From a virus, in the UHGV virus genome UHGV-1722641: a stretch of DNA of 13,133 nt; one strand, given 5' to 3'. Every line of letters starts with the position of its first letter. Positions within the stretch are counted from its first letter, which is position 1. The notes beneath the pieces are model-generated. The model searched no databases and had not been told where the DNA came from. It saw only the letters and a program-made list of their open reading frames with translations. Made by a program: the position numbers and the translations under genes. This document shows positions 1-13,133 of this stretch, piece by piece.

Positions 1-931
1 GTTCGGCGGCGCTGGCGCGTCCCCGGTTGAACAGTTCACCCGACCAGAACGGGTAGGCGTCGTGCGCCAGCGTGGACGGGGTGGAGAAATAGGTCGAGCG
101 CAGGTGACTCTGTGAGGCCATACCTGATGCCACCTTACGCAGTACCTGAAAATTCGGGATCCAGAAAATCTCGTCGACGTACAGGTCGCCGTTATGGCTC
201 TGCGCGGTGTTGGAGTTGGTGCCGAGAAAAATCAGTTTTGCGCCGTTATTGCCCAGGACAATCGGGTCACCGGTCAGGTCAACGTCAACCAGCCGGGCAA
301 AGGCGATGATGTATTCGCGGAACACATACGCCTGCGTTTTACTGGCCGACAGAAAAATCTGGTTATGACCGGTTTTCAGGGCGCGCAGCAGCGCCTCGCG
401 GGAAAAATAAAACGTCGCGCCAATCTGGCGGGATTTCAGGATATCGCGGATGCGGTGCTCAAGCCCGGCGCGATACCAGTGCAACTGATAGTCGAAAGAC
501 TGCTCAAAGAAAATCTGCTCCAGCTTTTCGATGGCCTCGTCACTGAAAAAATTCTTTTTCGGTTTGCGACGCCCGCCTTTGTTGCGGTTAGCGACGTTCG
601 GATTAAGGTCTGCCTCGTTGCCGGTCTGGCTGTAGCGGTTGACCCGTGCCAGTCGTTCAATCTGGCGTCCCAGCAGGTCAATTTCCTTGAAGTCACCGCC
701 GGTTTTCTGCGGTTTGATGATGAGCTGGGTCAGCCGCGCTTCCAGACTCATTTCGACACGGCTGATGGGGGCAACGCTGTCCCAGCCGTCGCGCTGTTTC
801 CAGCTCTGCACCGTCGGGCGTTTCATCTGCAACATGGCGGCAATCTGCGGCACGGAAAACCCCTGCCAGTACAGCAGCGCCGCCTGACGACGCGGGTCGT
901 GTAAAAGAGTGGTGTCTGTGGTGATGGTCAT
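1..931 (-). CDS. P: Terminase large (ATPase) subunit gpP, N-terminal ~310 codons; 3' end of the gene lies beyond the window start
   Basis: Minus-strand ORF with ATG at 931..929 stays open to position 2. Translation begins MTITTDTTLLHDPRRQAALLYWQGFSVPQIAAM and ends ...FWSGELFNRGRASAAE at the edge, matching my recollection of P2 gpP. It is missing from the ORF track only because it is truncated. It sits divergent from O, as in P2. Confidence 0.9.
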   Translation of the reverse strand, partial: MTITTDTTLLHDPRRQAALLYWQGFSVPQIAAMLQMKRPTVQSWKQRDGWDSVAPISRVEMSLEARLTQLIIKPQKTGGDFKEIDLLGRQIERLARVNRYSQTGNEADLNPNVANRNKGGRRKPKKNFFSDEAIEKLEQIFFEQSFDYQLHWYRAGLEHRIRDILKSRQIGATFYFSREALLRALKTGHNQIFLSASKTQAYVFREYIIAFARLVDVDLTGDPIVLGNNGAKLIFLGTNSNTAQSHNGDLYVDEIFWIPNFQVLRKVASGMASQSHLRSTYFSTPSTLAHDAYPFWSGELFNRGRASAAE

Positions 932-1104
932 GAATACCTCGCCGTGATGAATACACGGCAAGGCTACTGAGTCGCGCCCCGCGATTCGCTAAGGTGCTGT
1001 TGTGTCAGTGATAAGCCATCCGGGACTGATGGCGGAGGATGCGCATCGTCGGGAAACTGATGCCGACATGTGACTCCTCTAATCACTATTCAGGACTCCT
1101 GACA
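932..1104. promoter_or_regulatory. Divergent intergenic region expected to carry the activator-dependent late promoters for P (leftward) and O (rightward)
   Basis: 173-bp gap between divergent P and O starts. In P2 this region holds the Ogr-dependent late promoters, whose upstream element is TGT-N12-ACA. I find only an imperfect TGT-N12-CCA at 1001..1018, so exact sites are not assigned. Confidence 0.45.
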
Positions 1105-1959
1105 ATGGCAAAAAAAGTCTCAAAATTCTTTCGTATCGGCGTTGAGGGTGACACCTGTGACGGGCGTGTCATCAGTGCGCAGGATATTCAGGAAATGGCC
1201 GAAACCTTTGACCCGCGAGTCTATGGTTGCCGCATTAACCTGGAACATCTGCGCGGCATCCTGCCTGACGGTATTTTTAAACGTTATGGCGATGTGGCCG
1301 AACTGAAGGCCGAAAAGATTGACGATGATTCGGCGCTGAAAGGCAAATGGGCGCTGTTTGCGAAAATCACCCCGACCGATGACCTTATCGCGATGAACAA
1401 GGCCGCGCAGAAGGTCTACACCTCAATGGAAATTCAGCCGAACTTTGCCAACACCGGCAAATGTTATCTGGTGGGTCTGGCCGTCACCGATGACCCGGCA
1501 AGCCTCGGCACGGAATACCTGGAATTCTGCCGCACGGCAAAACACAACCCCCTGAACCGCTTCAAATTAAGCCCTGAAAACCTGATTTCAGTGGCAACGC
1601 CTGTTGAGCTGGAATTTGAAGACCTGCCTGAAACCGTGTTCACCGCCCTGACCGAAAAGGTGAAATCCATTTTTGGCCGCAAACAGGCCAGCGATGACGC
1701 CCGTCTGAATGACGTGCATGAAGCGGTGACCGCTGTTGCTGAACATGTGCAGGAAAAACTGAGCGCCACTGAGCAGCGCCTCGCTGAGATGGAAACCGCC
1801 TTTTCCGCACTTAAGCAGGAGGTGACTGACAGGGCGGATGAAACCAGCCAGGCATTCACCCGCCTGAAAAACAGTCTCGACCACACCGAAAGTCTGACCC
1901 AGCAGCGCCGCAGCAAGGCCACCGGCGGTGGCGGTGACGCCCTGATGACGAACTGCTGA
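1105..1959 (+). CDS. O: Capsid scaffolding protein gpO
   Basis: Translation MAKKVSKFFRIGVEGDTCDGRV... (284 aa) matches recalled P2 gpO. The track ORF starts at 1039, but the ATG at 1105 gives the P2-length product. Position is directly upstream of the capsid gene. Confidence 0.9.
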   Translation: MAKKVSKFFRIGVEGDTCDGRVISAQDIQEMAETFDPRVYGCRINLEHLRGILPDGIFKRYGDVAELKAEKIDDDSALKGKWALFAKITPTDDLIAMNKAAQKVYTSMEIQPNFANTGKCYLVGLAVTDDPASLGTEYLEFCRTAKHNPLNRFKLSPENLISVATPVELEFEDLPETVFTALTEKVKSIFGRKQASDDARLNDVHEAVTAVAEHVQEKLSATEQRLAEMETAFSALKQEVTDRADETSQAFTRLKNSLDHTESLTQQRRSKATGGGGDALMTNC

Positions 1960-2017
1960 CCGGCGTCAGTCAGTCCGGGAAAACCTTCACGATTAACCCT
2001 TAATTTCAGGAAAAACT

Positions 2018-3091
2018 ATGCGCCAGGAAACCCGCTTTAAATTTAATGCCTACCTGTCCCGTGTTGCCGAACTGAACGGCATCGACGCCGGTGATGTGTC
2101 GAAAAAATTCACCGTTGAACCGTCGGTCACCCAGACCCTGATGAACACCATGCAGGAGTCCTCTGACTTTCTGACCCGCATCAACATTGTGCCGGTCAGC
2201 GAAATGAAAGGGGAAAAAATTGGTATCGGTGTCACCGGCTCCATCGCCAGCACCACCGACACCGCCGGTGGCACCGAGCGTCAGCCGAAGGACTTCTCGA
2301 AGCTGGCGTCAAACAAGTACGAATGCGACCAGATTAACTTCGATTTTTATATCCGCTACAAAACGCTGGACCTGTGGGCGCGTTATCAGGATTTCCAGCT
2401 CCGTGTCCGTAACGCCATTATCAAACGCCAGTCCCTTGATTTCATCATGGCCGGTTTTAACGGCGTGAAGCGTGCCGAAACCTCTGACCGCAGCAGTAAT
2501 CCGATGCTGCAGGATGTGGCGGTCGGCTGGCTGCAGAAATACCGCAATGAAGCCCCGGCGCGCGTGATGAGCAAGGTTACTGACGAGGAAGGTCACACGA
2601 CCTCTGAGGTCATCCGCGTGGGTAAGGGCGGTGATTATGCCAGCCTCGATGCACTGGTGATGGATGCGACCAACAACCTGATTGAGCCGTGGTATCAGGA
2701 AGACCCTGACCTTGTGGTGATTGTGGGGCGTCAGCTACTGGCGGACAAGTATTTCCCCATCGTCAACAAGGAGCAGGACAACAGCGAAATGCTGGCCGCT
2801 GACGTCATCATCAGCCAGAAACGCATCGGTAACCTGCCGGCGGTACGCGTCCCGTACTTCCCGGCGGATGCGATGCTCATCACGAAGCTGGAAAACCTGT
2901 CCATCTACTACATGGATGACAGCCATCGCCGCGTGATTGTGGAAAACCCGAAACTCGACCGCGTGGAGAACTACGAGTCAATGAACATTGATTACGTGGT
3001 GGAAGACTACGCCGCCGGTTGTCTGGTGGAAAAAATTAAGGTCGGTGATTTCTCCACACCGGCTAAAGCGACCGCAGAGCCGGGAGCGTAA
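2018..3091 (+). CDS. N: Major capsid protein gpN
   Basis: 357-aa ORF MRQETRFKFNAYLSRVAELNGIDAGDVSKKF... with an AGGA ribosome-binding site upstream. Length and sequence match recalled P2 gpN. Confidence 0.92.
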   Translation: MRQETRFKFNAYLSRVAELNGIDAGDVSKKFTVEPSVTQTLMNTMQESSDFLTRINIVPVSEMKGEKIGIGVTGSIASTTDTAGGTERQPKDFSKLASNKYECDQINFDFYIRYKTLDLWARYQDFQLRVRNAIIKRQSLDFIMAGFNGVKRAETSDRSSNPMLQDVAVGWLQKYRNEAPARVMSKVTDEEGHTTSEVIRVGKGGDYASLDALVMDATNNLIEPWYQEDPDLVVIVGRQLLADKYFPIVNKEQDNSEMLAADVIISQKRIGNLPAVRVPYFPADAMLITKLENLSIYYMDDSHRRVIVENPKLDRVENYESMNIDYVVEDYAAGCLVEKIKVGDFSTPAKATAEPGA

Positions 3092-3094
3092 CCG

Positions 3095-3838
3095 ATGACG
3101 AGTCCCGCACAGCGCCACATGATGCGGGTCTCGGCAGCGATGACCGCGCAGCGGGAAGCCGCCCCGCTGCGACATGCAACTGTCTATGAGCAGATGCTGG
3201 TCAAGCTGGCCGCAGACCAGCGCACACTGAAAGCGATTTATTCAAAAGAGCTGAAGGCCGCGAAAAAACGCGAACTGCTGCCGTTCTGGTTGCCGTGGGT
3301 GAACGGCGTGCTGGAGCAGGGCAAAGGTGCACAGGATGACATTCTGATGACGGTCATGCTGTGGCGTCTGGATACCGGCGATATTGCCGGTGCGCTGGAG
3401 ATTGCCCGTTATGCCCTGAAGTACGGTCTGACCATGCCGGGTAAACACCGCCGCACCCCGCCGTACATGTTCACCGAGGAGGTGGCGCTCGCGGCCATGC
3501 GCGCCCACGCTGCCGGTGAGTCTGTGGATACCCGCCTGCTGACGGAGACCCTTGAACTGACCGCCACGGCTGACATGCCTGATGAAGTGCGCGCAAAGCT
3601 GCACAAAATCACCGGTCTGTTTCTGCGTGACGCTGGTGATGCCGCCGGTGCGCTGGCTCACCTGCAACGTGCGACACAGCTCGACTGTCAGGCAGGCGTC
3701 AAAAAAGAGATTGAACGACTGGAGCGGGAGCTGAAACCGAAGCCGGAGCCGCAACCCAAAGCGGCCACCCGTGCCACGCGTAAGACCCGGAGCGTGACAC
3801 CGGCAAAACGTGGACGCCCGAAAAAGAAAGCCAGTTAA
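3095..3838 (+). CDS. M: Terminase small (endonuclease) subunit gpM
   Basis: 247-aa ORF MTSPAQRHMMRVSAAMTAQREAAPL... with a basic C-terminal tail (KRGRPKKKAS). It starts 3 nt after the N stop, as in P2. Confidence 0.9.
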   Translation: MTSPAQRHMMRVSAAMTAQREAAPLRHATVYEQMLVKLAADQRTLKAIYSKELKAAKKRELLPFWLPWVNGVLEQGKGAQDDILMTVMLWRLDTGDIAGALEIARYALKYGLTMPGKHRRTPPYMFTEEVALAAMRAHAAGESVDTRLLTETLELTATADMPDEVRAKLHKITGLFLRDAGDAAGALAHLQRATQLDCQAGVKKEIERLERELKPKPEPQPKAATRATRKTRSVTPAKRGRPKKKAS

Positions 3839-3867
3839 CAACCGAATGCGCCCCGCGCCAGGGCGGC

Positions 3868-3910
3868 ACGCCGGTCAGTGACGGTGAATCACCTGACACT
3901 GCACCGGCGT
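3868..3910 (+). other. GC-rich imperfect dyad symmetry in the M-L intergenic gap
   Basis: acgccggt (3868..3875) pairs with accggcgt (3903..3910); nested cagtg/cactg (3876..3880 / 3896..3900) and ggtga/tcacc (3883..3887 / 3890..3894). No T-tract follows. Confidence 0.3.
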
Positions 3911-3937
3911 CCACCGCCCGACTTTTCAGAGGTAGTC

Positions 3938-4447
3938 ATGATGACGCTGATTATTCCGCGAAAGGAGGCTCCCGTGTCCGGTGAGGGTACGGTGGTCATC
4001 CCGCAACCGGCAGGCGACGAGCCGGTGATTAAAAACACGTTCTTTTTTCCCGATATCGACCCGAAGCGCGTCCGGGAACGTATGCGCCTTGAGCAGACCG
4101 TCGCCCCCGCCCGTCTGCGTGAGGCCATCAAGTCAGGCATGGCTGAAACGAATGCGGAGCTGTACGAGTACCGCGAACAGAAAATTGCTGCCGGTTTTAC
4201 GCGTCTGGCGGACGTCCCGGCGGACGACATCGACGGTGAAAGCATCAAAGTTTTTTACTACGAGCGCGCCGTGTGTGCGATGGCGACCGCGTCGCTTTAT
4301 GAGCGTTATCGCGGCGTGGATGCCAGTGCGAAAGGCGACAAGAAGGCTGACAGCATTGACAGCACCATTGATGAACTGTGGCGGGATATGCGCTGGGCAG
4401 TGGCGCGCATCCAGGACAAGCCGCGCTGCATCGTGAGTCAAATCTGA
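3938..4447 (+). CDS. L: Head completion/stabilisation protein gpL
   Basis: Track ORF 3878..4447; P2-like start MMTLIIPRKEAPVSGEGTVVIP at ATG 3938, with GAGG a few bases upstream, giving 169 aa. Confidence 0.88.
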   Translation: MMTLIIPRKEAPVSGEGTVVIPQPAGDEPVIKNTFFFPDIDPKRVRERMRLEQTVAPARLREAIKSGMAETNAELYEYREQKIAAGFTRLADVPADDIDGESIKVFYYERAVCAMATASLYERYRGVDASAKGDKKADSIDSTIDELWRDMRWAVARIQDKPRCIVSQI

Positions 4448-4650
4448 TGAAGACCTTTGCGCTACAGGGCGACACGCTCGACGCCATTTGTGTCCGGTAT
4501 TACGGGCGCACTGAGGGCGTGGTTGAGACCGTGCTCGCCGCAAATCCGGGACTGGCTGAACTGGGTGCGGTGCTGCCGCACGGCACCGCCGTCGAACTGC
4601 CCGACGTTCAGACCGCGCCCGTGGCTGAAACTGTCAATCTGTGGGAGTAA
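4447..4650 (+). CDS. X: Tail protein gpX
   Basis: 67-aa product MKTFALQGDTLDAICVRYYGRTEGVVETVLAANPGLAELG...; its ATG overlaps the L stop (ATGA at 4445..4449). The track ORF from 4378 is an in-frame upstream extension. Confidence 0.85.
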   Translation: MKTFALQGDTLDAICVRYYGRTEGVVETVLAANPGLAELGAVLPHGTAVELPDVQTAPVAETVNLWE

Positions 4651-4653
4651 CGC

Positions 4654-4935
4654 ATGACAGCAGAAGAAAAAAGCGTCCTGTCGCTTTTCATGATTGGGGT
4701 GCTGATTGTTGTCGGCAAGGTGCTTGCCGGTGGTGAACCCATCACCCCGCGTCTGTTTATCGGGCGCATGTTGCTCGGTGGTTTTGTCTCGATGGTTGCC
4801 GGTGTTGTTCTGGTGCAGTTTCCTGACCTGTCACTGCCTGCGGTGTGCGGTATCGGCTCCATGCTGGGTATCGCCGGTTATCAGGTGATTGAGATTGCCA
4901 TTCAGCGCCGCTTTAAGGGCAGGGGGAAACCGTAA
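4654..4935 (+). CDS. Y: Holin gpY
   Basis: 93-aa hydrophobic protein MTAEEKSVLSLFMIGVLIVVGKVLAGG... with a charged C-terminus (RRFKGRGKP), immediately upstream of the endolysin gene. Confidence 0.88.
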   Translation: MTAEEKSVLSLFMIGVLIVVGKVLAGGEPITPRLFIGRMLLGGFVSMVAGVVLVQFPDLSLPAVCGIGSMLGIAGYQVIEIAIQRRFKGRGKP

Positions 4936-5432
4936 TGCCGGTAATTAACACGCATCAGAATATCGCCGCCTTTCTCGACATGCTGGCCGTGTCCGAAGGG
5001 ACGGCGAATCATCCGCTGACGAAAAACCGGGGCTATGACGTGATAGTCACCGGACTGGACGGGAAGCCGGAAATCTTCACCGACTACAGTGACCACCCGT
5101 TCGCACATGGCCGACCGGCGAAGGTGTTTAACCGTCGCGGTGAAAAATCCACGGCCTCCGGTCGCTATCAGCAGCTTTACCTGTTCTGGCCGCATTACCG
5201 CAAACAGCTTGCCCTGCCGGATTTCAGTCCGTTGTCACAGGACAGACTTGCCATTCAGTTGATCCGCGAACGCGGTGCACTGGATGACATCCGGGCGGGA
5301 CGCATTGAGCGCGCCATTTCACGCTGTCGCAATATCTGGGCGTCCCTGCCGGGTGCCGGTTACGGTCAGCGTGAGCATTCACTGGAAAAACTGGTCACCG
5401 TCTGGCGTACCGCTGGCGGCGTACCGGCTTAA
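4935..5432 (+). CDS. K: Endolysin (lysozyme) gpK
   Basis: 165-aa ORF MPVINTHQNIAAFLDMLAVSEGTANHPLTKNRGYDVIVTG..., matching recalled P2 gpK. The start overlaps the Y stop by one base (TAATG). Confidence 0.9.
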   Translation: MPVINTHQNIAAFLDMLAVSEGTANHPLTKNRGYDVIVTGLDGKPEIFTDYSDHPFAHGRPAKVFNRRGEKSTASGRYQQLYLFWPHYRKQLALPDFSPLSQDRLAIQLIRERGALDDIRAGRIERAISRCRNIWASLPGAGYGQREHSLEKLVTVWRTAGGVPA

Positions 5433-5446
5433 ACGGAGTAAACACC

Positions 5447-5872
5447 ATGAAGAAATTATCCCTTTCACTGATGCTGAACGTGTCGCTGGCGCTGATGCTG
5501 GCACTGTCCCTGATTTACCCGCAGAGCGTGGCCGTCAGTTTTGTCGCTGCCTGGGCGATTCTGGCGACGGTTATCTGTGTGGTTGCCGGTGGTGTCGGCG
5601 TGTATGCCACTGAGTATGTGCTGGAACGCTACGGGCGGGAGCTGCCGCCGGAATCGCTGGCCGTGAAGATTGTCACGTCGCTGTTTTTGCAGCCGGTGCC
5701 GTGGCGCAGACGGGCGGCGGCTCTGGTGGTGATGGTGGCGACGTTTATCTCGCTGGTCGCTGCCGGGTGGATTTTTACCGCGCTGATTTATCTTGTGGCG
5801 TCGGTGTTCTTCCGGCTGATTCGTACGGCCTGCCGTCAGCGTTTTGAGGGGCGGGAACCATGTCAAAGCTGA
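5447..5872 (+). CDS. lysA: LysA, membrane protein of the lysis cassette (putative antiholin)
   Basis: 141-aa highly hydrophobic protein MKKLSLSLMLNVSLALMLALSLIYPQ... with several predicted transmembrane segments and a GGAG ribosome-binding site upstream. Position after K matches P2. Confidence 0.85.
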   Translation: MKKLSLSLMLNVSLALMLALSLIYPQSVAVSFVAAWAILATVICVVAGGVGVYATEYVLERYGRELPPESLAVKIVTSLFLQPVPWRRRAAALVVMVATFISLVAAGWIFTALIYLVASVFFRLIRTACRQRFEGREPCQS

Positions 5873-6285
5873 TGATTGTGCTGGTCGTGTTGTTATCGCT
5901 GGCGGTGGCGTGGCTGTTTCTGGCGAAGCATGAAAACGCCAGCCTGCGCGCCTCACTGGACAGGGCGAACAGCGTCGCCAGCGGGCAGCAGACGACCATC
6001 ACCATGCTGAAAAATCAGCTTCATGTTGCGCTCACCAGGGCAGACAAAAACGAGCTGGCGCAGGTGGCACTGCGTCAGGAACTGGAGAACGCCGCGAAGC
6101 GTGAAGCACAGCGCGAGAAAACCATCACGAGGTTACTTAATGAAAACGAGGATTTTCGCCGCTGGTACGGTGCTGACCTGCCTGATGCTGTGCGCCGGTT
6201 GCACCAGCGCCCGGCCTGCGCCGACGCCAGTGATTGTCCACAACGCCTGCCCGAAAGTGAGCCTTTGCCCGATGCCGGGCAGTGA
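5860..6285 (+). CDS. lysB: LysB, Rz-like inner-membrane spanin
   Basis: 141-aa ORF with an N-terminal transmembrane segment (MSKLMIVLVVLLSLAVAWLFLA) followed by a charged, likely coiled-coil region. Start overlaps the lysA 3' end. Confidence 0.85.
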   Translation: MSKLMIVLVVLLSLAVAWLFLAKHENASLRASLDRANSVASGQQTTITMLKNQLHVALTRADKNELAQVALRQELENAAKREAQREKTITRLLNENEDFRRWYGADLPDAVRRLHQRPACADASDCPQRLPESEPLPDAGQ

Positions 6286-6430
6286 CCCGGAGACGAACGG
6301 CGATTTAAGTGCCGATATCCGGCAGCTTGAGAACGCGCTGGCACGCTGTGCCAGCCAGGTAAAAATGATTAAACACTGTCAGGACGAAAACGATGCTCAA
6401 ACCCGACAGCCTGCGCAGGGCGCTGACTGA
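6140..6430 (+). CDS. lysC: LysC, Rz1-like outer-membrane lipoprotein spanin, in the +1 frame relative to lysB
   Basis: Internal ATG at 6140 of track ORF 6023..6430, with ACGAGG a few bases upstream. Product MKTRIFAAGTVLTCLMLCAGCTSARPAPTPV... has a signal peptide, a lipobox-like CAGC and a Pro-rich mature region. It overlaps the lysB 3' end and the R start. Confidence 0.75.
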   Translation: MKTRIFAAGTVLTCLMLCAGCTSARPAPTPVIVHNACPKVSLCPMPGSDPETNGDLSADIRQLENALARCASQVKMIKHCQDENDAQTRQPAQGAD

Positions 6431-6860
6431 TGCCGTCACGGTGCTGAAAACTAACCCCGATATGCTGCGGATATTCGTGGATAACGGGAGTATTGCCTCC
6501 ACACTGGCGGCGTCGTTGTCATTCGAAAAGCGTTACACGCTCAATGTGATTGTGACCGACTTTACCGGTGATTTTGACCTGCTCATCGTGCCGGTGCTGG
6601 CGTGGCTGCGGGAAAATCAGCCCGACATCATGACCACCGACGCAGGCCAGAAAAAGGGCTTCACGTTTTATGCGGACATCAACAATGACAGCAGCTTTGA
6701 TATCAGCATCAGCCTGATGCTGACCGAGCGCACGCTGGTCAGTGAGGTGGACGGCGCGCTGCATGTGAAGAATATCCCGGAACCTCCGCCGCCGGAGCCG
6801 GTCACCCGCCCGATGGAGCTGTATATCAATGGCGAACTGGTGAGCAAGTGGGATGAATGA
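6393..6860 (+). CDS. R: Tail completion protein gpR
   Basis: 155-aa ORF MLKPDSLRRALTDAVTVLKTNPDMLRIFVDNGS..., matching recalled P2 gpR. Confidence 0.88.
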   Translation: MLKPDSLRRALTDAVTVLKTNPDMLRIFVDNGSIASTLAASLSFEKRYTLNVIVTDFTGDFDLLIVPVLAWLRENQPDIMTTDAGQKKGFTFYADINNDSSFDISISLMLTERTLVSEVDGALHVKNIPEPPPPEPVTRPMELYINGELVSKWDE

Positions 6861-7305
6861 GTTTAAGCGTTTTGAAGACCGGCTGACCGGACTGATTGAA
6901 TCGCTGTCACCGTCAGGGCGTCGGCGACTGAGTGCCGAACTGGCGAAACGTCTGCGGCAGAGTCAGCAGCGCCGGGTGATGGCACAGAAAGCCCCGGACG
7001 GCACACCCTACGCGCCACGCCAGCAGCAGAGCGCCAGAAAAAAGACCGGTCGTGTTAAGCGAAAAATGTTTGCGAAACTTATCACCAGTCGTTTTTTGCA
7101 TATCCGCGCCAGCCCGGAACAGTCATCAATGGAGTTTTACGGCGGGAAGTCACCGAAAATCGCCAGTGTGCATCAGTTCGGTCTGTCGGAAGAAAACCGG
7201 AAAGACGGTAAGAAAATTGATTATCCGGCGCGTCCTCTGCTCGGCTTTACCGGTGAGGATGTGCAGATGATTGAAGAGATTATCCTGGCTCACCTCGACC
7301 GTTAG
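6853..7305 (+). CDS. S: Tail completion protein gpS
   Basis: 150-aa ORF MNEFKRFEDRLTGLIESLSPSGRRRLSAELAKRL...; overlaps the R 3' end by 8 nt. Confidence 0.88.
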   Translation: MNEFKRFEDRLTGLIESLSPSGRRRLSAELAKRLRQSQQRRVMAQKAPDGTPYAPRQQQSARKKTGRVKRKMFAKLITSRFLHIRASPEQSSMEFYGGKSPKIASVHQFGLSEENRKDGKKIDYPARPLLGFTGEDVQMIEEIILAHLDR

Positions 7306-7371
7306 TTGTGCCATTCCTGACACCTCATCGTCACATTGCCGCCGGTATGACCCGGCGGCATCCTTCCCGTT
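7306..7371 (+). promoter_or_regulatory. Putative late promoter region upstream of V, with TGT-N12-ACC at 7307..7324 and a GC-rich hairpin at 7337..7360
   Basis: 66-bp S-V gap. The TGT...ACC element is one mismatch from the P2 late-promoter dyad TGT-N12-ACA. A 9-bp perfect inverted repeat tgccgccgg / ccggcggca with a 6-nt loop is followed by a pyrimidine-rich tccttcccgtt. Confidence 0.35.
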
Positions 7372-8007
7372 ATGAACACTCTCGCAAATATTCAGGAACT
7401 CGCGCGCGCACTGCGCAACATGATTCGCACCGGCCTTGTCGTCGAAACCGACCTTAACGCCGGTCGCTGCCGTGTGCAGACCGGCGGCATGTGCACCGAC
7501 TGGCTTCAGTGGCTGACCCATCGCGCCGGACGTTCGCGCACATGGTGGGCACCTTCCGTGGGGGAACAGGTGCTGATTCTGGCCGTGGGCGGTGAACTCG
7601 ACACGGCGTTCGTTCTGCCGGGGATTTATTCCGGCGATAACCCCGCGCCGTCTGCGTCGGCGGATGCCCTGCATATCCGTTTCCCTGACGGGGCGGTGAT
7701 TGAGTATGAACCCGAAACCAGTGCACTCACGGTAAGCGGAATTAAAACGGCCAGCGTGACGGCTTCTGATTCTGTTACTGCCACGGTGCCGGTGGTCATG
7801 GTGAAAGCATCAACCCGCGTCACCCTGGACACACCGGAGGTGGTCTGCACCAACAGGCTGATTACCGGCACGCTGGAAGTGCAGAAGGGCGGGACGATGC
7901 GCGGCAACATTGAACACACCGGCGGTGAACTCTCATCAAACGGTAAGGTACTGCATACCCATAAACACCCCGGCGACAGCGGCGGCACAACCGGGAGTCC
8001 TCTATGA
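7372..8007 (+). CDS. V: Baseplate spike / assembly protein gpV
   Basis: 211-aa ORF MNTLANIQELARALRNMIRTGLVVETDLNAGRCRVQTGG..., matching recalled P2 gpV. Confidence 0.9.
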   Translation: MNTLANIQELARALRNMIRTGLVVETDLNAGRCRVQTGGMCTDWLQWLTHRAGRSRTWWAPSVGEQVLILAVGGELDTAFVLPGIYSGDNPAPSASADALHIRFPDGAVIEYEPETSALTVSGIKTASVTASDSVTATVPVVMVKASTRVTLDTPEVVCTNRLITGTLEVQKGGTMRGNIEHTGGELSSNGKVLHTHKHPGDSGGTTGSPL

Positions 8008-8351
8008 CAGCGCGTTATCTCGGAATGAATCGCAGTGATGGCCTGACTGTCACTGACCTTGAGCATATCAGCCAGAGTATCGGCGATATCCTGCGCACAC
8101 CGGTCGGCTCACGGGTGATGCGTCGTGATTACGGCTCGTTGCTGGCGTCAATGATTGACCAGCCGCAGACCCCGGCGCTTGAGTTGCAGATTAAGGTCGC
8201 CTGTTACATGGCGGTGCTGAAATGGGAACCCCGCGTCACCCTGTCATCCGTCACCACGGCGCGCAGCTTTGACGGGCGAATGACGGTCACGTTAACCGGC
8301 CAGCACAACGACACCGGCCAGCCACTTTCGTTAACCATCCCTGTGAGTTGA
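8004..8351 (+). CDS. W: Baseplate wedge protein gpW
   Basis: 115-aa ORF MTARYLGMNRSDGLTVTDLEHISQSIGDILRTPVGSRV...; ATGA overlap with the V stop and GGGAG upstream. Confidence 0.9.
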   Translation: MTARYLGMNRSDGLTVTDLEHISQSIGDILRTPVGSRVMRRDYGSLLASMIDQPQTPALELQIKVACYMAVLKWEPRVTLSSVTTARSFDGRMTVTLTGQHNDTGQPLSLTIPVS

Positions 8352-8355
8352 AACC

Positions 8356-9264
8356 ATGCCGATTATCGACCTGAACCAGCTACCCGCACCGGATGTGGTC
8401 GAGGAGCTGGACTTTGAAACCATTCTCGCCGAACGCAAGGCGACACTGATTTCCCTTTACCCGGAAGACCAGCAGGAGGCGGTCGCCCGTACCCTGACGC
8501 TGGAATCTGAGCCTCTCGTCAAACTGCTGGAGGAAAATGCTTATCGTGAGCTTATCTGGCGTCAGCGTGTGAATGAGGCCGCACGGGCGGTGATGCTGGC
8601 CTGTGCCGCCGGTAATGACCTTGATGTGATTGGTGCCAATTACAACACCACGCGCCTGATTATCACCCCGGCAGATGATTCGACTATCCCGCCGACACCG
8701 GCAGTGATGGAGTCTGACACCGATTATCGTCTGCGTATTCAGCAGGCGTTTGAGGGCTTAAGCGTCGCCGGGTCGGTGGGAGCCTATCAGTATCATGGTC
8801 GCAGTGCCGACGGGCGTGTCGCGGATATCTCTGTCACCAGTCCGTCTCCGGCCTGCGTCACCATCTCTGTGCTGTCACGTGAAAATAACGGTGTCGCATC
8901 CGAAGACCTGCTGGCGGTGGTGCGTAACGCCCTTAATGGCGAGGACGTCAGGCCGGTGGCCGACCGCGTGACCGTGCAGTCTGCCGCCATCGTTGAATAC
9001 CAGATAAACGCCACGCTTTACCTTTACCCTGGTCCCGAAAGCGAACCCATCCGCGCTGCCGCCGTGAAAAAACTGGAAGCGTATATCACGGCACAGCACC
9101 GGCTGGGGCGCGACATCCGTCTGTCTGCCATTTATGCCGCTTTGCATGTGGAAGGCGTGCAGCGTGTCGAACTGGCTGCACCACTGGCCGACATCGTGCT
9201 CAACAGTACGCAGGCGTCTTTCTGTACCGAATACCGCGTCGTGACCGGAGGCTCGGATGAGTGA
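8356..9264 (+). CDS. J: Baseplate protein gpJ
   Basis: 302-aa ORF MPIIDLNQLPAPDVVEELDFETILAERKATLISLYPEDQQ..., matching recalled P2 gpJ. Confidence 0.9.
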   Translation: MPIIDLNQLPAPDVVEELDFETILAERKATLISLYPEDQQEAVARTLTLESEPLVKLLEENAYRELIWRQRVNEAARAVMLACAAGNDLDVIGANYNTTRLIITPADDSTIPPTPAVMESDTDYRLRIQQAFEGLSVAGSVGAYQYHGRSADGRVADISVTSPSPACVTISVLSRENNGVASEDLLAVVRNALNGEDVRPVADRVTVQSAAIVEYQINATLYLYPGPESEPIRAAAVKKLEAYITAQHRLGRDIRLSAIYAALHVEGVQRVELAAPLADIVLNSTQASFCTEYRVVTGGSDE

Positions 9265-9787
9265 TTCGCGCCTGCTGCCGACCGGCTCATCACTGCTTGA
9301 AGTCGCTGCCGCAAAAGCCTGTGCGGAAATTGAAAAAACGCCGGTCAGTATTCGTGAGCTGTGGAACCCGGACACCTGCCCGGCAAATCTGCTGCCGTGG
9401 CTGGCGTGGGCGTTTTCGGTCGACAGGTGGGATGAAAAGTGGCCGGAAGCGACAAAACGCGCCGTTATCCGCGATGCCTATTTCATCCACTGTCATAAAG
9501 GCACTATAGGCGCAATCCGGCGTGTGGTGGAGCCGCTCGGCTATCTCATCAACGTGACGGAGTGGTGGGAAAACAGTGACCCGCCCGGCACCTTCCGGCT
9601 TGATATTGGTGTACTGGAAAGCGGTATCACAGAGGCAATGTATCAGGAAATGGAACGGCTGATTGCTGATGCCAAACCTGCAAGCCGCCACCTTATTGGC
9701 CTGAACATTACCCGGGACATTCCCGGCTACCTGTTCGCCGGTGGTGTGGCTTACGACGGCGATGTAATTACGGTTTACCCCGGATAA
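9257..9787 (+). CDS. I: Baseplate protein gpI
   Basis: 176-aa ORF MSDSRLLPTGSSLLEVAAAKACAEIEKTPVSIRELWNPD...; GGAGG upstream; overlaps the J 3' end by 8 nt. Confidence 0.9.
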   Translation: MSDSRLLPTGSSLLEVAAAKACAEIEKTPVSIRELWNPDTCPANLLPWLAWAFSVDRWDEKWPEATKRAVIRDAYFIHCHKGTIGAIRRVVEPLGYLINVTEWWENSDPPGTFRLDIGVLESGITEAMYQEMERLIADAKPASRHLIGLNITRDIPGYLFAGGVAYDGDVITVYPG

Positions 9788-9797
9788 GTGAGGAATA

Positions 9798-11795
9798 ATG
9801 AGCACAAAATTCAGAACCGTTATCACCACTGCCGGTGCAGCAAAGCTGGCAGCGGCAACCGCGCCGGGAGGGCGGAAGGTCAACATTACCACGATGGCCG
9901 TCGGGGATGGCGGTGGTAAATTGCCTGTCCCGGATGCCGGACAGACCGGGCTTATCCATGAAGTCTGGCGACATGCGCTGAACAAAATCAGCCAGGACAA
10001 ACGAAACAGTAATTATATTATCGCAGAGCTGGTTATTCCGCCGGAGGTGGGCGGTTTCTGGATGCGTGAGCTTGGCCTGTACGATGATGCGGGAACATTA
10101 ATTGCCGTGGCGAACATGGCCGAAAGTTATAAGCCAGCTCTTGCCGAAGGCTCAGGGCGTTCGCAGACCTGTCGCATGGTCATCATCGTCAGCAGTGTGG
10201 CCTCAGTGGCGCTGACCATTGACACCACAACGGTGATGGCGACGCAGGATTACGTTGATGACAAAATTGCAGAGCATGAACAGTCACGACGTCACCCGGA
10301 CGCCTCGCTGACCGCAAAAGGTTTTACTCAGTTAAGCAATGCGACCAACAGCACGTCTGAAACACTGGCCGCAACGCCGAAAGCGGTTAAGGCCGCATAT
10401 GACCTTGCTAACGGGAAATATACTGCGCAGGATGCCACCACAGCGCGAAAAGGTCTTGTCCAGCTCAGTAGTGCCACCAACAGCACGTCTGAAACGCTCG
10501 CCGCAACACCAAAAGCGGTAAAGGCAGCATATGACCTTGCTAACGGGAAATACACTGCACAGGACGCCACCACAGCGCGAAAAGGTCTTGTCCAGCTCAG
10601 TAGCGCCACCAACAGCGATTCTGAAACGCTTGCGGCAACGCCAAAGGCGGTTAAGACAGCGTATGACCTTGCTAACGGAAAATACACTGCACAGGACGCC
10701 ACCACGGCGCGGAAAGGTCTTGTTCAGCTCAATAGTGCCATCAACAGCGATTCTGAAACGCTGGCTGCAACACCAAAAGCGGTGAAGTCTGCCTATGACA
10801 ATGCTGAAAAACGTCTTCAGAAAGATCAAAATGGCGCGGATATTCCTGATAAAAGATTATTCCTGCGCAATATTGGAGCAACAAATTCAACAACCATGTC
10901 TTTTAGTGGTGGTACAGGATGGTTCAGGCTGGCAACTGTAACCATGCCACAGGCCAGTTCCGTGGTTTACATAAGTCTGATTGGTGGTGCTGGATATAAT
11001 GTTAACTCCCCTATGCAGGCTGGTATATCTGAACTTGTTCTTCGTGCGGGAAATGGAAATCCAAAAGGTCTTACTGGTGCGTTATGGCGACGGACATCGG
11101 TTGGATTTACTAATTTTGCATGGGTGAATACATCCGGTGATACCTATGATGTTTATGTTGAAATAGGTAATTACGCCACAGGTGTTAATATTCAGTGGGA
11201 TTATACCAGTAACGCCAGCGTAACGATTCATACATCACCAACTTATACAGCGAATAAACCAACAGGTCTTACAGATGGAACTGTATATGTAATTTACAGT
11301 TCGCACATTAAACCGACTGCTGCTGATGTTGGGGCGTTGTCATTATCTGGAGGTCAATTGAATGGTGCACTGGGCATCGGAACATCCAGTGTTCTTGGTG
11401 GTAACTCAATTGTTTTGGGTGATAATGACACGGGCTTTAAACAAAATGGTGACGGTAATCTGGATGTTTATGCTAATAACGTTCATGTTATGCGCTTTGT
11501 CTCCGGTAGCATTCAAAGTAATAAAACCATAAATATTACGGGTCGTGTTAATCCCACAGATTACGGTAACTTTGATTCCCGCTATGTCCGGGATATCCGG
11601 CTTGGTGGTGCTGCCACATACAAACCTGCGAACAATGGCATGACATGGACACATCAGGCACCGTCCGGGTGTGTATATTCCGGCATTATTATTCAGGATA
11701 CCGGCTCAAACTCTGCCGATAACATTGGTGGCGTATATTACAGACCGGTGCAGAAATACATTAACGGGACATGGTATAACGTGGCGCAGGTATAA
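9798..11795 (+). CDS. H: Tail fiber protein gpH, mosaic: P2-like N-terminus, expanded internal repeats, divergent low-GC C-terminal receptor-binding region
   Basis: 665-aa ORF with GTGAGGA upstream. N-terminus MSTKFRTVITTAGAAKLAAATAPG... resembles P2 gpH; the middle holds about 3.7 tandem 44-aa repeats (KGLVQLSSATNSTSETLAATPKAVKAAYDLANGKYTAQDATTAR). The C-terminal half is low GC but keeps the conserved patch VLGDNDTGFKQNGDGNLDVYAN and the C-terminal QKYINGTWYNVAQV. Confidence 0.88.
   Translation: MSTKFRTVITTAGAAKLAAATAPGGRKVNITTMAVGDGGGKLPVPDAGQTGLIHEVWRHALNKISQDKRNSNYIIAELVIPPEVGGFWMRELGLYDDAGTLIAVANMAESYKPALAEGSGRSQTCRMVIIVSSVASVALTIDTTTVMATQDYVDDKIAEHEQSRRHPDASLTAKGFTQLSNATNSTSETLAATPKAVKAAYDLANGKYTAQDATTARKGLVQLSSATNSTSETLAATPKAVKAAYDLANGKYTAQDATTARKGLVQLSSATNSDSETLAATPKAVKTAYDLANGKYTAQDATTARKGLVQLNSAINSDSETLAATPKAVKSAYDNAEKRLQKDQNGADIPDKRLFLRNIGATNSTTMSFSGGTGWFRLATVTMPQASSVVYISLIGGAGYNVNSPMQAGISELVLRAGNGNPKGLTGALWRRTSVGFTNFAWVNTSGDTYDVYVEIGNYATGVNIQWDYTSNASVTIHTSPTYTANKPTGLTDGTVYVIYSSHIKPTAADVGALSLSGGQLNGALGIGTSSVLGGNSIVLGDNDTGFKQNGDGNLDVYANNVHVMRFVSGSIQSNKTINITGRVNPTDYGNFDSRYVRDIRLGGAATYKPANNGMTWTHQAPSGCVYSGIIIQDTGSNSADNIGGVYYRPVQKYINGTWYNVAQV
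10317..10803 (+). repeat. Tandem 132-bp direct repeats (about 3.7 copies) inside gpH, encoding a 44-aa fiber repeat
   Basis: Unit boundaries read directly at 10317, 10449, 10581 and 10713, in frame with H. Units differ at scattered positions, mostly third-codon, but are clearly the same sequence. The minus-strand track ORFs 10328..10705 and 10332..10829 are mirror artefacts of this repeat. Confidence 0.9.
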
Positions 11796-11798
11796 TTT

Positions 11799-12326
11799 AT
11801 GCAGCATTTGATAAATATAACGGCGGGTAATCCAAAAACGGTTGAACAATATCAATTGACAAAGGACTTTGATGTTGTCTGGTTTTTTTCAGAAGATGGT
11901 AAGAACTGGTACGAAGAACAAAAGTATTTTGCTGATGACACGATAAAAATAGCGTACGACAAAGATAATATTATCCGCTATGTGGAAAAGGATGTGACAG
12001 CTATCAGACCGGATGGATTAAGTGTTGTTGAAGTGGCGGATATTACTGCTAACCGACGGGCGGACATTTCAGGGGGCTGGATGTTTAAGGACGGCAAAGT
12101 GATTAAACGCATTTATACGGCAGAGGAATTGCAGCAGCAGGCAGAAATTCGGAAAGCCAGACTTCTTGCAGATGCTGAATCCGTGATTTTGCCGCTGGAG
12201 CGCGCGGTCAGACTGAACATGGCAACAGATGAGGAGCGTAGCCGACTGGAAGCATGGGAACGCTACAGCGTTCTGGTCAGTCGTGTGGATCCTGCAAATC
12301 CTGAATGGCCGGAAATGCCGCAATAA
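11799..12326 (+). CDS. G: Tail fiber assembly chaperone gpG
   Basis: 175-aa ORF starting 3 nt after the H stop. The C-terminal part (...[37 protein letters not shown]...EWPEMPQ) is the conserved fiber-assembly domain; the N-terminal half is low GC like the 3' half of H. Confidence 0.85.
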
Positions 12327-12595
12327 GTTGTATGAACTCTGGTGTGAGCTTACATATCTATGGCACAGAGTAAAGCCTAATCTGACAGTCCGCTCTGTGC
12401 CAGAAGCGGACGTTGCGGGACGTCAGATATCTAAAAAAACTAATGGTCCGCTTGGATAGATACTTACACAGGATGCAATAAAGAGTTTCTATTTCTTTGT
12501 GGTAGCAAACTTTGATTTCTGAAGGATAATACCTCCAATAAGTTGAAATCACATATATCGCTAAAGACTCTATACAACAACCAAGAGAGACCGCA
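12327..12595 (+). promoter_or_regulatory. AT-rich non-coding spacer upstream of the cargo ORF; likely carries its own promoter
   Basis: 269 bp with no convincing ORF, a strong composition drop relative to the phage core, a -10-like GATAAT at 12525..12530 and TTGAAA at 12543..12548. I could not pair a convincing -35/-10 by eye. Confidence 0.3.
12361..12402 (+). other. 10-bp perfect inverted repeat (stem-loop) just downstream of the G stop, at the core/cargo boundary
   Basis: tggcacagag (12361..12370) and ctctgtgcca (12393..12402) with a 22-nt loop; followed by a GGACGT direct repeat (12408..12413 and 12418..12423), the palindrome AGATATCT (12425..12432) and an A7 run. No U-tract, so not a classical intrinsic terminator. 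Confidence 0.3.
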
Positions 12596-13133
12596 ATGGA
12601 TAGTGTCAGTAGTGTTGAGCGTTTAAGAACAAAAGCTTTTTATCAGTTGCTTGTGGATAGGCTTGGAACTGAGGCCTGGGCTGCTCGCAAAGCTGCATAT
12701 TTCAAGCGCATAAGAGAGAAGGAGGCTAAGTTTAACATCAATCTGCCGATAGAGCCCCAGCTCTTCATACCAGCAGAAGATGACATCGACTGGTACATTC
12801 TGGCGTCGTATCTGTCTCATGATTTTCCATATAGTGATGCTACTTACAGCAGCAGACGTATCTACCCCTATGCTATGGCCATCGGAGCTGTTGCAGACCA
12901 GCTTCGCAAAGTCCCATACGTCGATGATGTTCTGGACAAAATGCTAGCAAATAACAATAAACCAGAAACTCAAATTTTTGAGCTGCTGACGGCATCGTTC
13001 TACCTAAAGAACGGCTATGAGGTTGCCTTCATCCCAGAAAGCAGCATTGTTTGGCCCGATGGAAAGACCAAAAAATCACCGGATATGCTTGTCAAGTTAG
13101 GTGATCTGGAGTTCTACGTTGAGTGCAAAAGGT
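12596..13133 (+). CDS. Hypothetical cargo protein, 5'-partial view (179 codons, open to window end); possible PD-(D/E)xK-like nuclease motif; candidate accessory/defence gene
   Basis: ATG at 12596 preceded by a purine-rich stretch (AGAGAGA) 6 nt upstream; no stop before 13133. The line 12601..12660 counts 22/60 GC against 41/60 for the first 60 bases of the window. Translation MDSVSSVERLRTKAFYQLLVDRLG...ETQIFELLTASFYLKNGYEVAFIPESSIVWPDGKTKKSPDMLVKLGDLEFYVECKR has an acidic helix, PD, then E-C-K 14 residues later. No resemblance to any P2 structural protein I know. Confidence 0.6.
   Translation, partial: MDSVSSVERLRTKAFYQLLVDRLGTEAWAARKAAYFKRIREKEAKFNINLPIEPQLFIPAEDDIDWYILASYLSHDFPYSDATYSSRRIYPYAMAIGAVADQLRKVPYVDDVLDKMLANNNKPETQIFELLTASFYLKNGYEVAFIPESSIVWPDGKTKKSPDMLVKLGDLEFYVECKR

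Follow-up and report, generated by a model that had tools for sequence, protein, structure and literature searches.

The 13,133-nt stretch of viral DNA analysed here (UHGV-1722641, hereafter the window) carries a tandem array of 132-bp units inside a tail fibre gene, and it raises the question of whether this array is an expansion that lengthens the fibre shaft, as a first-pass annotation had proposed, or the ordinary state of such fibres. The late genes of a P2-like prophage make up the window, which extends from those for the terminase and capsid to the tail fibre and stops 1.3 kb past the end of the fibre gene. Over positions 1-12415 the window aligns colinearly to E. coli chromosomes, with identities of up to 98.7%, and the annotation of the matching E. 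coli loci follows the P2 gene order V-W-J-I-H-G. The fibre gene is flanked upstream by the baseplate genes V, W, J and I and directly downstream by a gene of the PF02413 gpG type, which is annotated as tail fiber assembly protein in the matching E. coli loci. This gene order, the N-terminal PF12571 tail-collar fibre domain and a nucleotide identity of about 94.5% to P2 H over the matched 5' part identify the gene as a P2-type tail fibre gene H, in agreement with the name first given to it. The counterpart of gene H at the locus of E. coli KOr024, which is 99.5% identical at the nucleotide level over the 3' 1,679 nt of the gene (window 10117-11795), is annotated as 'tail fiber protein'. An Rfam search of the entire window at the gathering threshold gave zero matches.

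Tandem Repeats Finder reported the array at positions 10340-10799 with a period of 132 (3.5 copies, 89% matches, 0 indels, score 682), and a separate repeat search placed copies at 10316, 10448 and 10580, again with a spacing of 132. The array consists of three full units and one truncated unit of 132 nt, all four in frame with gene H (Table 1). Within the array, the identity at an offset of 132 was 0.87 over 355 positions, compared with a mean of 0.26 (sd 0.023, maximum 0.34) in 2000 shuffles, which places the array at a z of about 27; the best offset-132 identity outside the array, in the rest of the window, was 0.35. The in-frame 132-bp tandem array with three full copies and one partial copy was therefore borne out by Tandem Repeats Finder, by the unit HMM and by the shuffles. 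The 44-aa peptide that had been quoted for it is unit 2, letter for letter, and the array end that had been set at 10803 was right to within 2 nt, since the unit HMM match ends at 10805. The units had also been described as near-identical, and this part did not hold: pairwise, the three full units share 79.5-89.4% nucleotide identity and 89-93% protein identity.

Table 1. Features of the fibre locus in window positions, with the evidence for each
Feature	Position	Strand	Evidence or remark
Tail fibre gene H (gpH homologue)	9798..11795	+	ORF, 665 aa; Pfam PF12571 + PF03406 x4
N-terminal, putative baseplate-attachment domain, aa 1-173	9798..10316	+	PF12571 over aa 1-151, E=1.8e-58
Repeat unit 1, aa 174-217, KGFTQLSNATNSTSETLAATPKAVKAAYDLANGKYTAQDATTAR	10317..10448	+	94-98.5% nt identity to unit 1 in other phages
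Repeat unit 2, aa 218-261	10449..10580	+	nt identity 86.4% to unit 1, 89.4% to unit 3
Repeat unit 3, aa 262-305	10581..10712	+	100% identity to unit 3 of E. coli KOr024
Terminal truncated unit 4, aa 306-336, KGLVQLNSAINSDSETLAATPKAVKSAYDNA	10713..10805	+	unit HMM positions 1-31 of 44
Conserved linker EKRLQKDQNGADIPD, mosaic joint between proximal and exchangeable distal module	10806..10850	+	homology boundaries
Distal (putative receptor-binding) part	10851..11795	+	no P2 gpH similarity across most of region
Tail fibre assembly protein (gpG homologue), partner of distal part	11799..12326	+	PF02413 Caudo_TAP, E=6.3e-34

The four units correspond to four separate stretches of PF03406 (Phage_fiber_2, 'phage tail fibre repeat'), matched at 264.7 bits against a cut-off of 22 and located in the same ORF as the PF12571 domain, and the unit motif matches 4676 protein cluster representatives at E <= 0.001. 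The array is thus an already known Pfam repeat in its commonest configuration. The same 44-aa motif occurs with other N-terminal domains in lambdoid side tail fibres and in giant proteins; some PF03406 fibres of about 800 aa have 11-12 copies, for example in the form of a 100-aa super-repeat in P0124, and giant PF03406 proteins of more than 3000 aa have up to 22 matched stretches, so that four copies are unremarkable. Two other kinds of variable locus were considered and rejected. Simple-sequence contingency loci have units of 1-9 nt, the gain or loss of which alters the frame or the spacing of the promoter, whereas the units here are 132 nt long and 11-20% diverged, and the frame is kept in every allele examined. 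For an invertible tail-fibre segment of the Mu G or P1 C type, the window held no gix-like site, second fibre cassette or invertase ORF: a search of the window for the Mu gix sequence that tolerated as many as 3 mismatches gave no match, and neither an invertase ORF nor a second pair of fibre and assembly genes was seen in the window, in which a single pair is present.

From their position and the family name, the units probably belong to the proximal shaft of the fibre trimer. An AlphaFold2 monomer model of aa 1-360, built on an 18-sequence alignment, had a mean pLDDT of 50 and a pTM of 0.36 and was too poor for use, and when the PDB was searched by sequence and by profile for a structure of the unit, Mu S constructs were the only matches. 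The Mu tail fibre S, or gp49 (PDB 5yvq, 9ki1, 8ju3), has one copy of the motif with a linker of the same kind behind it, KGLVQLTSATDSPSETLAATAKAVKIAMDNANARLAKDRNGADIPNK, and its C-terminal tip is related to that of the window's fibre; it is unlike the window's fibre in having a single unit, another N-terminal domain and an invertible G segment. The N-terminal domain of the window's fibre shares 99-100% amino acid identity with its counterparts in 80 IMG/VR loci, and its role would be attachment to the baseplate, by analogy with the homologous N-terminus of Mu gp49. The latter docks on a baseplate wedge protein, as described in the Mu cryo-EM paper, where gp49 was built at the N-terminus only and the residue limits are unstated (PMC11915804).

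The proposal of an expansion had started from the statement that P2 gpH has fewer copies. This statement was right, since P2 gpH (AF063097, AAD03286.1) shows two PF03406 stretches in the same scan that gave four for the window, and both reference P2 and Wphi have one full and one truncated unit. P2 gpH occupies the same slot between genes I and G, its array likewise starts at aa 174, nearly all residues of its aa 1-173 match those of the window's fibre, and its unit 1 is orthologous to window unit 1 (94.7% nucleotide identity). It leaves the array inside unit 2, after KAVK, for a different and longer distal part that is unlike the window's and similar to it only at the extreme C-terminus; the second unit of Wphi gpH is also broken off after KAVK. 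The term 'expanded' is nevertheless not appropriate, because a four-unit array with the same boundaries is found in vB_EcoM-12474II (MK907236) and in the 'Escherichia virus P2' isolate OU784750. Their gpH proteins have units at aa 174, 218, 262 and 306, a terminal unit and the QKDQNGADIP linker, and match the window over gene nt 1-1049 at 96-97% identity, after which another distal module begins (GKDTFTKNIGACRAYS...) that resembles Mu S'. About ten more phage records gave colinear matches over gene nt 1-1049 with 95.5-97% identity. Nor is the fibre lengthened in total, with 665 aa against 669 aa in P2 gpH, because its distal part is shorter (335 aa versus 427 aa after the last KAVK).

Units were counted with the unit HMM in 107 gpH loci. 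In every counted locus the array started at aa 173 or 174 and comprised n-1 full units and one terminal unit; a terminal unit of 25-36 aa closed the array in every gpH homologue examined, and array lengths among homologues differed by multiples of 44 aa. Among the 75 complete nearest IMG/VR loci, 54 had four units, 14 had five, 6 had two, 1 had three and none had one. Numbers were lower in the 22 loci counted for species representatives of other enterobacterial genera, with one unit in 7, two in 8, three in 6, four in 1 and five in none. Homologues with six units are also present in the protein database, and the overall range is 1-6. Four units are the modal state among P2-like E. coli prophages, and reference P2, with two, lies at the low end.

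When the loci were grouped by their post-array sequence, 16 had the distal type of the window, and among these five units (12 loci) were commoner than four (3 loci, including the window) or three (1 locus). The window's fibre type is present in 67 complete E. coli genomes; among the best 60 of these 67, 19 had exactly the window's length and 15 were 132 nt longer, and 8 of the 19 equal-length genomes showed at least 99.3% nucleotide identity to the window gene. In some genomes the alignment started at the array (query nt 197), and both genes fetched from this group encode 709 aa with five units; the other rows with this pattern were taken as five-unit genes by inference, megablast coordinates alone being ambiguous for unit number. 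The fibre of KOr024 (WP_096943563.1) shares with the window the N-terminal domain, the linker, the distal module and the number of four units, and the five-unit and three-unit alleles of this fibre type differ from it only by the gain or loss of 132-nt units. The five-unit alleles, of 709 aa, include those of EC21 (WP_087525644.1), JNE170426 and NCTC9008, and the three-unit alleles, of 621 aa, are found in 22 protein-database cluster representatives, several of them from Mb-scale contigs. The further suggestion that copy number may vary between lineages is therefore confirmed, with 1-6 units among homologues and with 3, 4 and 5 units, in steps of 132 nt, within one fibre type.

The units were also compared with one another and with their positional counterparts. 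Differences fell at third codon positions in 13/18, 19/27 and 11/14 cases for the three pairs of full units, and the ratios of synonymous to non-synonymous codon changes were 12:3, 15:5 and 10:2. Between each unit of the window and its positional counterpart in other fibres of four units, the nucleotide identity was 92-100%: window units 3 and 4 were 100% identical to those of KOr024, and units 1 and 2 were closest (98.5%) to those of L008, a locus with another distal type. Since paralogous units are 80-89% identical while positional orthologues are 92-100% identical, the array is old and did not expand recently, and the pattern of codon changes suggests that it is kept by purifying selection on the peptide.

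These data bear directly on a lineage-specific and fairly recent expansion that would lengthen the shaft relative to normal P2-like fibres. It would explain why reference P2 and Wphi gpH have only one full and one truncated unit, and yet we regard it as very unlikely, because the identical four-unit architecture is common to many phages and prophages and modal among the nearest loci (54/75), the units resemble their positional orthologues more than each other, the protein is no longer than that of P2, and most of the nearest fibres with this distal type have five units. This last observation, together with the fact that the window is a whole ENA assembly contig, the single record in which its exact fibre protein occurs, could instead point to a true five-unit array that was collapsed to four in a short-read assembly, and a metagenome contig, L074, does differ from a complete genome only by a clean two-unit deletion. 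Such an artefact is nonetheless highly improbable for the window, given the 19 complete E. coli genomes of exactly its length (8 of them at 99.3% nucleotide identity or more) and the perfect match of units 3 and 4 to KOr024. Moreover, the units differ by 11-20% and adjacent units are identical over no more than 38 nt in a row, so that reads of at least 100 nt can separate them, and the window's array does not equal any sampled five-unit array minus one unit, with 22-36 mismatches left.

If the repeat were instead the trace of a gene encoded on the other strand, the candidates would be two mechanically listed minus-strand ORFs, 10328-10705 and 10332-10829, of 125 and 165 aa. However, the differences between units lie at third positions of the plus frame, in which the peptide is conserved and PF03406 is strongly matched, and the 165-aa ORF is without a Pfam match; the codon-position pattern of the plus frame and the absence of a family match thus exclude an antisense gene with near certainty. 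Overall, the array is very probably the ordinary PF03406 array of a P2-type gpH, with the modal number of four units, old and variable in steps of one unit.

How an ordinary array of this kind changes in length was considered from the alleles of the window's fibre type. The IMG/VR contig L074, with three units, equals NCTC9008, with five, at every base of the gene except for a clean in-frame deletion of 264 nt, which can be positioned to within a 30-nt stretch of identity; this deletion is either a very recent event or an assembly collapse in a metagenome contig. In a neighbour-joining tree of the flanks, the four-unit pair of the window and KOr024 and the three-unit allele each nest among five-unit alleles, which suggests independent losses from a five-unit state, in a small sample and a tree open to confounding by recombination. 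Between alleles, the mismatch density is 5-6% in the array compared with 1.5-1.7% in the flanks. The window's array has 22-36 mismatches in 487 positions to all sampled five-unit arrays, which makes it uncertain when and in which direction the one-unit difference arose, and the corresponding indel falls at different points of units 2-4 according to the allele compared.

Adjacent units have 38 nt in common, an exact match that spans the boundary between them, and this length is enough for homologous recombination in E. coli, given its minimal homology requirements. Unit number changes in whole steps of 132 nt, and from these shared runs and the pattern of the alleles we infer that the likely cause is in-register unequal homologous recombination or replication slippage between units, to which exchange between the arrays of different phages may add. 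No description of unit-number polymorphism in PF03406 or P2 gpH repeats was found in the searchable literature, although earlier descriptions may exist. Since three-, four- and five-unit alleles of one fibre, alike in their attachment and receptor-binding modules, coexist in E. coli prophages, it could be imagined that unit number is a selectable setting of fibre length and not neutral variation, with the alleles generated recurrently and kept because the best reach would vary with the depth of the host O-antigen or capsule, but we consider this rather doubtful.

The sequence that follows the array marks a change in relationship. Matches to phages of the 12474II type end at query nt 1049 (window 10846), and matches to distal parts of the vB_YpM_5 type begin at query nt 1021 (window 10818). 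The linker precedes at least six different distal types and is also found in Mu S, and the C-terminal ~70 aa of the window's distal part resemble Mu S and the 'short tail fiber' of PDB 9cuy. Since homology switches at the linker and one linker stands before at least six distal types, the array and linker are the constant proximal part of the fibre, onto which different receptor-binding modules are joined. This accords with the long-established picture of tail fibre genes as mosaics, for which Haggard-Ljungquist et al. 1992 is said to be the founding paper.

In addition to their putative part in the shaft, and without excluding it, the array and linker may act as a block of homology for swapping distal receptor-binding modules, a role that we put forward only tentatively. 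It would account for the finding that one N-terminal domain and array (92-98.5% nucleotide identity per unit) is joined to at least 8 distal types, that the two sets of relatives overlap only in the ~30-nt linker (10818-10846), that mismatches between alleles are denser in the array than in its flanks, and that the window combines units 1-2 nearest to L008 with units 3-4 identical to KOr024. Unit DNA moreover occurs in 2504/5426 E. coli genomes, where lambdoid side tail fibres and plasmids are among its carriers. On the other hand, selection acting on rare illegitimate events could equally give mosaic joints, recombination is read here from sequence patterns, and the P2-type joint lies inside unit 2, away from the linker.

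The array itself is ordinary, with a near-identical gene in RefSeq (that of KOr024), and the modest interest of the locus lies in the series of three-, four- and five-unit alleles within one fibre type. Reference P2 is unrepresentative of P2-like fibres in unit number, and comparison with P2 alone is therefore misleading. Since one fibre type varies by whole 44-aa units, a difference in gene length alone does not indicate another type of fibre, and unit counts taken from draft assemblies may be wrong. The array and the QKDQNGADIP linker could serve engineers of P2 or R-pyocin-type fibres as natural points for splicing and for tuning length. If unit number affects adsorption, the series of three-, four- and five-unit alleles would be a ready-made natural experiment.

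When the gpH sequences of the IMG/VR metagenome contig L074 (3300045988_117647) and of E. coli NCTC9008 were compared, all bases were the same except for one deletion, a single clean in-frame loss of 264 nt in L074 that corresponds to two of the repeat units. The two units were lost very recently, or else the contig collapsed during short-read assembly. Two side-tail-fiber-like proteins in the representative library, P0124 (778 aa) and P0123 (846 aa), carry 11-12 copies of the 44-aa motif. Reading the sequence of P0124 revealed about five almost identical super-repeats of ~100 aa, each consisting of a 44-aa unit and a 56-aa unit, the latter containing an HTHPW motif, and the same alternating 44/56 spacing was found in P0123.

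The exact fiber protein of the window is on record from one ENA assembly contig only, a contig of 13,133 bp of which the window is the whole; the cluster that holds this protein is represented by a fragment of 46 aa. A large share of the E. coli tail fiber homologues in the database are labeled "partial" and end inside the distal part of the gene, as exemplified by P0001 (404 aa; 358 member sequences); therefore, draft assemblies often break in the fiber gene, and the breaks seem to fall past the array rather than within it.

Downstream of the array, a short linker of ~30 nt encoding the peptide QKDQNGADIP is the sole overlap between two sets of phage relatives, one matching the N-terminal part and the array and the other matching the distal part. 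This peptide was found ahead of several different distal modules, and it is shared with Mu S, where it lies just ahead of the region holding the G-segment crossover site. No gix-like sequence was found in the window. The C-terminal tip of gpH is similar to the C-terminus of the "short tail fiber" in PDB 9cuy (E=2.4e-18) and also to that of Mu S. The distal module is itself mosaic.

Features from the linker of the fiber gene to the 3' end of the window
Feature	Window position	gpH residues	Strand	Basis
Linker	10818-10846			QKDQNGADIP
Trimerization-like segment		551-597		weak match to gp37 trimerization region
C-terminal tip	11580-11795	595-665		PDB 9cuy
Hypothetical 461-aa gene, 5' part	12596-13133, continues past window end		+	match to EcPF40 WP_001774109.1

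In P2, Z/fun occupies the slot that follows the fiber assembly gene and precedes the one for the tail sheath; in the window, this slot holds a hypothetical 461-aa gene. The part within the window is 99.5% identical in nucleotide sequence to the E. coli EcPF40 gene, which is followed by a DUF3800 gene. The sole match of the 461-aa gene was a sub-threshold one to an AHJR-like restriction-endonuclease Pfam family, and there was no PADLOC match. Because the E. coli genome KOr024, whose fiber gene is 99.5% identical to that of the window, carries a DUF2971 gene in this slot and not the 461-aa gene, the slot is a variable cargo site.
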